From NCBI RefSeq assembly GCF_003334815.1, contig NZ_QOWO01000002.1: a stretch of 64,000 nucleotides of DNA. One strand, written 5' to 3'. Position numbers and translations under genes: made by a program. Of the stretch, positions 15,353-51,700 are shown one piece after another; the first letter of the stretch is position 1, and every line of letters starts with the position of its first letter. The notes beneath the pieces are model-generated. The model ran no database searches and was not told where the DNA came from. It worked only from the letters and a program-made list of their open reading frames with translations. The stretch comes from Escherichia coli. Lineage in GTDB: Bacteria; Pseudomonadota; Gammaproteobacteria; Enterobacterales; Enterobacteriaceae.

Positions 15353-16084
15353 TTACTGTGGGAACCACTGGTCACTGATTTTTTGATAAGTACCGTCAGC
15401 TTTAATTGCTGCCAGCGCGTTATTCAGTTTTTCCAGCAGGGCTTTGTTATCCGGACGTACAGCGATGCCCAGGCCGGTGCCAAAATATTGCGGATCGGTC
15501 ACTTTCTCAGTAGCAACACCAAGTTGTGGATTGGTTTTCAGCCATTCGTTTACCACCGCTGTGTCACCAAATACCCCATCAATACGACCATTTTTCAGAT
15601 CGATAAAGGCATTCTGATAACTGTCATAAGAGACAGTTTTCACTTCCGGGTGCTGATCCTGAATATATTTCTGGTGCGTAGTACCGTTTTCCATCCCAAT
15701 ACGTTTGCCTTTCAGATCGGCAAACGTTTTGTAGGTATCTTTTTTGGCAATCACGACGGCTGAGTTTTCATAGTAGGGCGTGGTAAACGATACCTGTTTG
15801 CTACGCTCCGGGGTGATATCCATACCGGAGATTACGGCGTCATATTTTCTGAATTTCAGGGACGGGATCAGGCTGTCGAACGCGTGATTAGTAAAAGTAC
15901 ATTCTGCCTGCATTTGTTTGCACAAGGCTTTTGCCAGATCGATATCAAAGCCGACAATCTCATTATTAGCACCTATAGATTCAAAGGGTGGATAGGTGGC
16001 TGAAACGCCAAAATTGATTTTCTCTGCGGCAGAAGCACCGAAAGTAAAGGAAGCAAGTAAAGCGGCAAGAACTAACTTTTTCAT
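15353..16084 (-). CDS. artJ: Arginine ABC transporter periplasmic binding protein ArtJ
   Basis: 243-aa ORF from ATG 16084 (MKKLVLAALLASFTFGASA signal peptide); paralogue of artI. Confidence 0.95.
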   Translation of the reverse strand: MKKLVLAALLASFTFGASAAEKINFGVSATYPPFESIGANNEIVGFDIDLAKALCKQMQAECTFTNHAFDSLIPSLKFRKYDAVISGMDITPERSKQVSFTTPYYENSAVVIAKKDTYKTFADLKGKRIGMENGTTHQKYIQDQHPEVKTVSYDSYQNAFIDLKNGRIDGVFGDTAVVNEWLKTNPQLGVATEKVTDPQYFGTGLGIAVRPDNKALLEKLNNALAAIKADGTYQKISDQWFPQ

Positions 16085-16153
16085 GATGGAACTCCCGTCT
16101 GTCAATCTTATGATTTTTGGCCGTGTCTGCGGCATGGGATAACAATGCCATCA

Positions 16154-48103: not shown

Positions 48104-48598
48104 ATGGTAGATAGCAAGAAGCGCCCTGGCAAAGATCTCGACCGTATCGATCGTAACATTCTTAATGAGTTGCAAAAGGATGGGCGTATTTCTAACGTCG
48201 AGCTTTCTAAACGTGTGGGACTTTCCCCAACGCCGTGCCTTGAGCGTGTGCGTCGGCTGGAAAGACAAGGGTTTATTCAGGGCTATACGGCGCTGCTTAA
48301 CCCCCATTATCTGGATGCATCACTTCTGGTATTCGTTGAGATTACTCTGAATCGTGGCGCACCGGATGTGTTTGAACAATTCAATACCGCTGTACAAAAA
48401 CTTGAAGAAATTCAGGAGTGTCATTTAGTATCCGGTGATTTCGACTACCTGTTGAAAACACGCGTGCCGGATATGTCAGCCTACCGTAAGTTGCTGGGGG
48501 AAACCCTGCTGCGTCTGCCTGGCGTCAATGACACACGGACATACGTTGTTATGGAAGAAGTCAAGCAGAGTAATCGTCTGGTTATTAAGACGCGCTAA
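48104..48598 (+). CDS. lrp: Leucine-responsive regulatory protein Lrp
   Basis: 164-aa ORF from ATG 48104 (MVDSKKRPGKDLDRIDRNILNELQKDGRISNVELSKRVGLSPTPCLERVRRLE...). Confidence 0.95.
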   Translation: MVDSKKRPGKDLDRIDRNILNELQKDGRISNVELSKRVGLSPTPCLERVRRLERQGFIQGYTALLNPHYLDASLLVFVEITLNRGAPDVFEQFNTAVQKLEEIQECHLVSGDFDYLLKTRVPDMSAYRKLLGETLLRLPGVNDTRTYVVMEEVKQSNRLVIKTR

Positions 48599-48636
48599 CA
48601 CGGAACAGGTGCAAAATCGGCGTATTTTGATTACAC

Positions 48637-48656
48637 TCCTGTTAATCCATACAGCA
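48637..48656 (+). promoter_or_regulatory. LexA (SOS) box upstream of ftsK (dinH promoter)
   Basis: CTGT-N8-ACAG with exact spacing: TCCTGTTAATCCATACAGCA, ~80 bp upstream of ftsK start. Confidence 0.6.
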
Positions 48657-48732
48657 ACAGTACTGGGGTAACCTGGTACTGTTGTCCGTTTTAGCATCGG
48701 GCAGGAAAAGCCTGTAACCTGGAGAGCCTTTC

Positions 48733-51700
48733 TTGAGCCAGGAATACACTGAAGACAAAGAAGTCACATTGACAAAGTTAAGTAGCGGCCGCCGCCTTCT
48801 GGAGGCGTTGCTGATCCTTATTGTCCTGTTTGCCGTCTGGTTGATGGCTGCCTTACTAAGCTTTAACCCTTCGGACCCCAGCTGGTCGCAAACGGCCTGG
48901 CATGAACCTATCCATAATTTAGGTGGGATGCCCGGTGCGTGGTTGGCAGATACGCTGTTCTTTATTTTTGGCGTGATGGCTTACACCATTCCCGTCATTA
49001 TTGTCGGCGGTTGTTGGTTTGCCTGGCGTCATCAGTCCAGCGACGAATACATTGATTATTTTGCCGTTTCGCTACGCATCATTGGCGTTTTGGCGCTCAT
49101 CCTTACCTCCTGTGGTCTGGCGGCAATCAACGCTGACGATATCTGGTATTTTGCCTCCGGTGGCGTCATTGGCAGCTTACTAAGCACTACGCTACAACCA
49201 CTGCTACACAGTAGCGGGGGAACTATTGCGCTGCTCTGCGTTTGGGCAGCGGGCCTGACGTTGTTCACCGGTTGGTCATGGGTGACCATTGCTGAAAAAC
49301 TCGGCGGCTGGATTTTAAACATTCTCACCTTCGCCAGTAATCGTACCCGTCGCGATGATACCTGGGTCGATGAAGATGAGTATGAAGACGACGAAGAGTA
49401 TGAAGATGAAAATCACGGCAAACAGCATGAATCACGCCGTGCCCGTATTCTTCGCGGCGCGCTAGCGCGTCGTAAACGGTTGGCGGAAAAATTCATTAAT
49501 CCGATGGGGCGGCAAACAGACGCTGCGTTGTTCTCCGGTAAGCGGATGGATGATGACGAAGAGATTACCTACACTGCACGCGGTGTGGCTGCCGACCCGG
49601 ACGACGTCCTATTTTCGGGCAATCGTGCAACGCAGCCAGAATATGACGAATACGATCCATTATTAAACGGTGCGCCAATTACCGAACCTGTCGCTGTAGC
49701 AGCTGCTGCTACCACGGCGACACAAAGCTGGGCTGCGCCGGTTGAACCTGTGACTCAGACGCCGCCTGTTGCCTCTGTTGATGTTCCACCTGCGCAACCT
49801 ACAGTAGCCTGGCAGCCTGTACCGGGTCCACAAACGGGAGAGCCGGTTATTGCTCCTGCACCGGAAGGTTACCCACAGCAGTCACAATATGCGCAGCCTG
49901 CAGTGCAATATAATGAGCCGCTGCAACAACCAGTACAGCCGCAGCAGCCGTATTATGCACCTGCAGCTGAACAACCTGCGCAACAGCCGTATTATGCCCC
50001 TGCGCCAGAACAACCGGTGGCAGGTAACGCCTGGCAAGCCGAAGAGCAGCAATCCACTTTTGCTCCACAGTCTACATACCAGACTGAGCAAACTTATCAG
50101 CAGCCAGCCGCTCAGGAGCCGTTGTACCAACAGCCGCAACCCGTTGAACAGCAGCCTGTTGTGGAGCCTGAACCCGTTGTAGAAGAGACAAAACCCGCGC
50201 GTCCGCCGCTTTACTACTTTGAAGAAGTTGAAGAGAAGCGAGCCCGTGAACGTGAACAACTTGCGGCCTGGTATCAACCGATTCCAGAACCGGTTAAAGA
50301 ACCAGAACCGATCAAATCTTCGCTGAAAGCACCTTCTGTTGCAGCAGTACCTCCAGTAGAAGCCGCTGCCGCTGTTTCCCCGCTGGCATCTGGCGTGAAA
50401 AAAGCGACACTGGCGACGGGGGCTGCCGCAACCGTTGCCGCGCCAGTCTTCAGTCTGGCAAATAGCGGTGGACCGCGTCCTCAGGTCAAAGAGGGGATTG
50501 GTCCGCAGTTGCCACGACCGAAACGTATCCGCGTGCCAACTCGTCGTGAACTGGCGTCTTACGGTATTAAGCTGCCCTCACAGCGTGCGGCGGAAGAAAA
50601 AGCCCGTGAAGCCCAGCGCAATCAGTACGATTCTGGCGATCAGTACAACGATGATGAAATCGATGCGATGCAGCAGGATGAACTGGCACGTCAGTTCGCC
50701 CAGACACAGCAGCAACGCTATGGCGAACAGTATCAACATGATGTGCCCGTAAACGCAGAAGATGCAGATGCTGCGGCAGAGGCTGAACTGGCTCGTCAGT
50801 TTGCGCAAACTCAACAACAACGTTATTCCGGCGAACAACCGGCTGGGGCGAATCCGTTCTCGCTGGATGATTTTGAATTTTCGCCAATGAAAGCGTTGCT
50901 GGATGATGGTCCACACGAACCGTTGTTTACGCCAATTGTTGAACCTGTACAGCAGCCGCAACAACCGGTTGCACCGCAGCAGCAATATCAGCAGCCGCAA
51001 CAACCAGTTCCGCCGCAGCCGCAGTATCAGCAGCCACAACAGCCGGTTGCGCCGCAGCCACAATATCAGCAGCCGCAACAACCGGTTGCGCCACAGCAGC
51101 AATATCAGCAGCCGCAACAACCGGTTGCGCCGCAGCAGCAGTATCAGCAGCCACAACAGCCAGTTGCGCCACAACCGCAGGATACCCTGCTTCATCCGCT
51201 GTTGATGCGTAATGGCGACAGCCGTCCGTTGCATAAACCGACGACGCCGCTGCCTTCTCTGGATTTGCTGACACCGCCGCCGAGCGAAGTGGAGCCGGTA
51301 GATACCTTTGCGCTTGAACAAATGGCTCGCCTGGTGGAAGCGCGTCTGGCTGATTTCCGTATTAAAGCCGATGTCGTCAATTACTCTCCGGGGCCGGTTA
51401 TCACTCGCTTTGAATTGAACCTGGCACCGGGCGTAAAAGCGGCGCGCATTTCTAACTTGTCACGGGACCTTGCCCGTTCACTTTCGACGGTGGCGGTGCG
51501 TGTCGTTGAAGTTATTCCTGGCAAACCCTATGTAGGTCTGGAGTTACCGAATAAAAAACGACAAACCGTTTATCTGCGCGAAGTTTTGGATAACGCCAAA
51601 TTCCGCGATAATCCGTCGCCATTAACCGTGGTGCTGGGTAAAGATATCGCCGGTGAGCCGGTGGTTGCCGATCTGGCGAAAATGCCGCACTTGTTGGTTG

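Follow-up and report, generated by a model that had tools for sequence, protein, structure and literature searches.

An SOS box over the mapped start of the second ftsK promoter of Escherichia coli and its conservation in Enterobacterales

The window analyzed here, a 64-kb stretch of Escherichia coli DNA, carries lrp followed by ftsK on the same strand (Table 1). FtsK is the DNA translocase of the septum; it clears chromosomes away as the septum closes, and it activates the resolution of dimers by XerCD-dif. Read directly from the stretch, the spacer between the two genes contains the 20-mer TCCTGTTAATCCATACAGCA, in which the half-sites CTGT (48639 to 48642) and ACAG (48651 to 48654) enclose the 8-nt spacer TAATCCAT (48643 to 48650). 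The 20-bp site has the palindromic core of an SOS box, CTGT-N8-ACAG (CTG-N10-CAG), at 48639 to 48654, as the original prediction had claimed for the region between lrp and ftsK. The box begins 38 nt beyond the lrp stop codon (TAA, 48596 to 48598) and ends 76 nt upstream of the TTG start codon of ftsK at 48733, in good agreement with the distance of about 80 bp that had been proposed. It deviates from the consensus in its flanks, TCC and GCA, and in having T-A-A in place of A-T-A.

Table 1. Positions of genes, promoter elements, transcript ends and the LexA operator in the lrp-ftsK region (window coordinates)
Feature	Position	Strand	Source or remark
lrp coding sequence, 164 aa	48104..48598	+	RefSeq annotation
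Upstream start inside the lrp coding sequence	48439..48439	+	Cappable-seq U00096.2 932153, score 11.8
Candidate -35 hexamer GTGCAA, 3/6 matches, 17-bp spacer	48609..48614	+	Inside conserved block GGTGCAAAA
Putative -10 hexamer TACACT of dinH (ftsK P2)	48632..48637	+	At -12 to -7 from 48644; TATAAT match at positions 1, 2, 4, 6
LexA operator (SOS box) TCCTGTTAATCCATACAGCA	48637..48656	.	-7 to +13 of the dinH/ftsK P2 transcript
ftsK P2 (dinH) transcription start, A inside the box	48644..48644	+	Cappable-seq U00096.2 932358, score 14.5 (PMC4782308 supplementary file 1)
Conserved RNA hairpin, 13 bp (14 with G48654-U48685), GUAA loop 48668-71	48655..48684	+	MFE fold
Mapped RNA 3' end, hairpin foot	48685..48685	+	Term-seq NC_000913.3 933176 (PMC7815308 supplements)
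ftsK coding sequence, TTG start, 1329 aa	48733..52722	+	RefSeq annotation; Shine-Dalgarno GGAG 48721-24

The 20-mer at 48637 to 48656 is the already known LexA operator of ftsK and belongs to the established LexA regulon of this species. The operator at dinH, the second ftsK promoter (P2), was reportedly described by Lewis, Jenkins and Mount in 1992 and by Dorazi and Dewar in 2000, and it is said to be listed by Fernandez de Henestrosa and coworkers in 2000. Table 4 of PMC3009722 gives the exact sequence ACTCCTGTTAATCCATACAGCAACA as the SOS-box motif in front of ftsK, a UV-induced gene, and MEME picks the motif there together with other SOS boxes. A 2019 review of the SOS response places ftsK under a "known SOS box" (PMC6590174), and PMC4080785 cites Wang and Lutkenhaus (1998) for the SOS induction of ftsK and Dorazi and Dewar (2000) for an essential second ftsK promoter, dinH, that is needed for normal division. 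In the Reg-Seq study the ftsK LexA site counts as a high-evidence, experimentally validated gold standard and was recovered as a repressor site (PMC7567609); the repressor footprint was found in glucose minimal medium and was gone with H2O2 (PMC12133099). Direct binding of LexA at the box is taken from this literature, that is, from secondary citations and Reg-Seq, and so are the LexA-dependent repression and the damage-inducible expression of ftsK (PMC3009722, PMC12133099, PMC4080785), whereas the sequence, its score, the internal start and the conservation come from our own analysis.

The bare core, on which the original prediction was based, does not stand out from chance: CTGT-N8-ACAG matches twice in the 64-kb window versus 0.63 matches expected, and 2 or more matches occurred in 17 of 100 shuffles. 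The second copy, at 15621 to 15636, lies inside the artJ coding sequence (open reading frame 15353 to 16135, minus strand), reaches 9.4 bits when scored as a 20-mer and most likely arose by chance. These scores are from a symmetrized PWM made from the 17 other SOS boxes in Table 4 of PMC3009722, with ftsK excluded. The ftsK 20-mer scores 16.0 to 16.4 bits and ranks first among about 64,000 window positions, with the runner-up at 11.7 to 11.9 bits. The next-best LexA-like sites in the window (62356, 57917, 41572 and 15619) reach 9.4 to 11.9 bits and stay below every verified box. The training sites span 13.8 to 28.8 bits (polB, 13.8; dinB, 16.8; dinG, 18.4; sulA, 22.4). An analogue of the heterology index, computed here, is 10.3 for the ftsK box versus 1.9 to 12.0 for the training sites. 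By PWM score and by this analogue, the similarity of the box to verified operators is inside the range of functional sites, and the box is a weak operator that falls among the verified weak ones. When the full 64 kb were shuffled 500 times with dinucleotides preserved, only 21 shuffles contained a site with this score. The per-position probability of such a score is 1.1e-6, with about 0.07 sites expected per 64 kb, and about 5 sites as good as the ftsK box are expected by chance per 4.6-Mb genome; hence, the context of the box must carry the remaining argument.

This context is a mapped promoter. In the Cappable-seq list for MG1655 (PMC4782308), the only plus-strand start recorded between the one inside lrp and another some 940 nt downstream of the beginning of ftsK is A48644, which lies inside the box (CTGTT-A-ATCC) and leaves a 5' UTR of 89 nt, so that the box overlaps the core promoter and the start site. 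The start was seen in cells that had received no DNA-damaging treatment, which suggests that repression is incomplete. We derived coordinate offsets from gene starts and then tested them by how often start sites fell on purines. With the U00096.2-to-window offset of 883714, a purine is present at 18 of 19 strong start sites of this region, versus 6 to 14 with neighboring offsets, and the NC_000913.3 gene coordinates agree with this offset. A 300-nt MG1655 segment had no exact match in the window; the strain differs from MG1655 there and not at the operator.

The sequence TACACT shares its last base with the beginning of the box, and A48644 follows it at a distance of 7 nt. Its position and its conservation point to TACACT as the -10 hexamer: in 46 Enterobacterales sequences the bases TA.ACT do not vary, and at least 90% of the sequences have the C as well. 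GTGCAA, a weak match, may serve as the -35 hexamer; within the 46-sequence alignment TGCA.A (48610 to 48615) is invariant, and its spacing to TACACT is fixed save for a 1-nt deletion in one locus (L023). A generic scan for consensus promoters and terminators returned no promoter and, as its only hit, a minus-strand terminator-like site inside ftsK; such a scan is uninformative for so weak a promoter. We also considered an alternative promoter consisting of TTGATT (48627 to 48632), a 17-nt spacer and TACAGC (48650 to 48655), in which the box would cover the spacer and the -10 hexamer. It was rejected for the lack of a Cappable-seq start about 7 nt downstream, for the good fit of the mapped start to TACACT, and because TTGATT is not conserved beyond the Escherichia/Citrobacter/Enterobacter group.

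Two further observations concern the sequence upstream of the box. The block CAGGTGCAAAA (48606 to 48616), located after the lrp stop codon, is almost invariant in Enterobacterales, beyond what a -35 hexamer with 3 of 6 matches would need, and it could be the binding site of an extra factor or an extended promoter element. A small hairpin, CAGGT/ACCTG, around GGTGCAAAA was discarded; only 77% of its cells are paired, and in 3 of its 5 pairs just one side varies. The start at 48439 sits 7 to 8 nt after TAGTAT, and it fits the dispensable ftsK promoter P1 that has been reported within lrp (PMC4080785).

To follow the box across genomes, we took one genome for each species and searched it for the C terminus of Lrp with a degenerate pattern; this gave 120 loci, 111 of which have ftsK downstream on the same strand. 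TCCTG[T/G]nnATnnATACAG is the best site of the spacer in 48 of these 111 lrp-ftsK loci and lies 36 to 57 nt past the lrp stop codon; across the 48 box-bearing loci the same-site motif TCCTG[T/G]nnATnnATACAGnn scores 12.8 to 21.1 bits. All 48 belong to Enterobacterales. They represent about 30 named genera, among them Escherichia, Citrobacter, Enterobacter, Yersinia, Serratia, Hafnia, Edwardsiella, Proteus, Morganella, Photorhabdus, Xenorhabdus, Rahnella, Pectobacterium, Budvicia, Erwinia, Pantoea and Arsenophonus, and they also keep the -10 hexamer and the spacing. The lrp-ftsK spacers of Vibrionaceae, Shewanella, Aeromonas and Alteromonadales lack the box, with best scores of 10 bits or less. 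The 48 loci carry the site at the orthologous position and at the same offset, and in the alignment of 46 Enterobacterales sequences the half-sites are invariant; besides TGCA.A, the invariant bases are TA.ACTCCTG (48632 to 48641), AT (48645 and 48646) and ATACAG (48649 to 48654). Within E. coli, 5418 of 5427 records carry the 60-nt core promoter without any change, and a 501-nt query across the site has a match of at least 95% identity in all 5426 complete genomes (5426/5426), which identifies the window as part of the E. coli chromosome.

A functionless chance match to CTGT-N8-ACAG would agree with the near-chance frequency of the core in the window and with the artJ copy, which looks like such a match. 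It would not be expected to have the top PWM score in the window, to be placed exactly over a mapped start and to stay invariant across about 30 named genera. Conservation and the published regulation data already refute this explanation, and we give it practically no weight.

A different question is what the conservation reflects. Part of it could be due to the promoter instead of LexA, because the conserved TACACTCC overlaps the -10 hexamer. Taken to its end, this argument holds that the block is conserved as a core promoter, an initial transcribed sequence and the beginning of a leader hairpin, and that LexA binds too weakly to affect ftsK. The box is indeed weak (16 bits, with flanks off the consensus), its last two bases are the first two of the hairpin, the start at 48644 is active without induced damage, and the dinH promoter has been reported to be necessary for ordinary division (PMC4080785). 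However, the invariant bases obey the dyad, with CTG and CAG 10 bp apart, and the right half-site (+8 to +11, with invariance at +6 to +11) falls where no promoter element is expected. Constraint by the promoter alone would also not yield the 19 to 21 bits of the orthologous sites in Yersinia, Serratia, Hafnia, Proteus and Photorhabdus, which are nearer to the consensus than the E. coli site. In addition, Reg-Seq found a repressor-type footprint at the site that was lost under H2O2 (PMC12133099, PMC7567609), and ftsK is UV induced and has a motif that MEME groups with other SOS boxes (PMC3009722). We therefore consider a purely promoter-based conservation very improbable.

The higher scores in other genera suggest that LexA may control ftsK more tightly outside the Escherichia/Citrobacter/Enterobacter group. 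The strongest boxes, TCCTGTTTATTCATACAGTT and similar sequences with 20.7 to 21.1 bits, occur in six loci from Yersinia, Serratia, Hafnia and a MAG. Two members of the order deviate. Moellerella wisconsensis has lost TACACT and the box spacing and has kept the hairpin; its lrp-ftsK spacer has expanded to 919 nt and, 316 nt upstream of ftsK, contains another LexA-like site, of 13 bits. Pantoea sp. Nvir, a stink-bug symbiont with a reduced genome, has a decayed box (CTAA...ACAA).

The 20-mer is almost certainly the LexA operator of the second, DNA-damage-inducible ftsK promoter, dinH. This was the assignment made in the original prediction, and it is matched by the published listing of the SOS box, by Reg-Seq, by the start inside the box and by the conservation in Enterobacterales. 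As the mechanism, we infer that LexA occludes the -10/+1 region. RNA polymerase would use the -10 hexamer TACACT (48632 to 48637) and initiate at A48644, and a LexA dimer bound to CTGT-N8-ACAG would cover positions -7 to +13 and compete with the polymerase for the -10/+1 region. Upon DNA damage, RecA filaments on single-stranded DNA would stimulate the self-cleavage of LexA, the operator would be vacated, and ftsK transcription would go up. Since the operator departs from the consensus, repression is probably partial, which fits the need for a basal ftsK transcript in normal division.

The box runs into a conserved RNA hairpin, with which it shares its last two bases and which begins 11 nt downstream of the start at 48644. 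In the P2 transcript the hairpin covers +12 to +41; it also belongs to the 3' region of lrp transcripts, and it is followed by UCCGUUUUAG. In the 46-sequence alignment, compensatory changes are present in 10 of 10 consensus pairs, and 98% of the cells are paired versus 29 to 58% in slid controls. An Rfam search of 48300 to 49000 found no family for the hairpin and returned only a chance match to a Dictyostelium snoRNA (E = 0.92). The RNA 3' end at its foot, placed with an NC_000913.3-to-window offset of 884491, has a Rho score of 1.03, an intrinsic-terminator score of 1.70 and a coverage of 475 upstream versus 419 downstream (PMC7815308); this end is not Rho dependent. Judged as an intrinsic terminator, the hairpin has a stable, covarying stem and the tail UCCGUUUU, but its score is below 3.0, the coverage hardly falls, and it was not among the calls of the terminator scan. 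It is most simply read as a leaky terminator of lrp or as a stem that protects the 3' end, which is also part of the SOS-inducible ftsK leader.

Poor termination at the hairpin implies that read-through into ftsK exists, and LexA might act mainly as a roadblock to transcripts coming from the lrp promoter and P1 and not by occluding P2; the two modes could coexist. The position of the site, 38 nt past the lrp stop codon and downstream of the start at 48439, is compatible with such a roadblock, as are the low terminator score and the small change in coverage. Yet a start site inside the operator is the classical geometry of occlusion, Reg-Seq reporters that contain only the promoter region still give the repressor footprint, and we found no data for LexA blocking an elongating polymerase at this site. 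A main role as a roadblock is even less probable than a conservation caused by the promoter alone, and occlusion of P2 remains our preferred explanation.

With an SOS-controlled start 11 nt upstream of a covarying hairpin and a 3' end at the hairpin foot, the hairpin may have more than a role at the end of lrp. It is a candidate leader element of ftsK, either a partial attenuator, with a 42-nt SOS-inducible RNA as its product, or a 5' stabilizer, an idea that we put forward as a rather unlikely one. If true, the hairpin would add a post-initiation layer to the control of ftsK; we found no earlier description of such a layer.

Throughout the order, the translation start region of ftsK (48718 to 48742, ACCTGGAGAGCCTTTCTTGAGCCAGGAA) is conserved. 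This holds for GGAG and also for the weak start codon TTG, which is replaced by ATG in Morganella only. An inverted repeat, CCTGG/CCAGG, encloses the Shine-Dalgarno sequence together with the start codon, and this bracketing suggests that the translation of ftsK is kept deliberately low or structured.

The site couples DNA damage to raised FtsK expression, and its confirmation adds no new biology. Our work contributes a map at base resolution that places the operator at -7 to +13 relative to the mapped start, support from phylogenetic footprinting for the -10 hexamer TACACT, and the observation that the arrangement is common to the sampled Enterobacterales and not to neighboring gammaproteobacterial orders, with a stronger box in several genera.

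Among the known systems, the E. coli dinH/ftsK P2 operator is the same locus with the same 20-mer, and NC_000913.3 has the same lrp/ftsK arrangement. The weak operators of polB (dinA), dinG and dinB have CTG-N10-CAG with degenerate flanks in common with ftsK and fall into a similar band of PWM scores. All three are dispensable damage-response genes. Unlike their operators, the one at ftsK lies on a promoter that has been reported to be needed for the basal expression of an essential gene (PMC4080785). The boxes of sulA and ftsK both tie the SOS response to cell division, and their central parts are similar, with ATCCATACAG common to the sulA box, TACTGTACATCCATACAGTA, and the ftsK box, TCCTGTTAATCCATACAGCA. 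The sulA box has consensus TACTGT/ACAGTA arms and scores 22.4 bits, whereas the ftsK box is without such arms. The sulA gene is under tight repression and codes for an inhibitor of division; ftsK, which is probably repressed only in part, codes for a motor of division and segregation.
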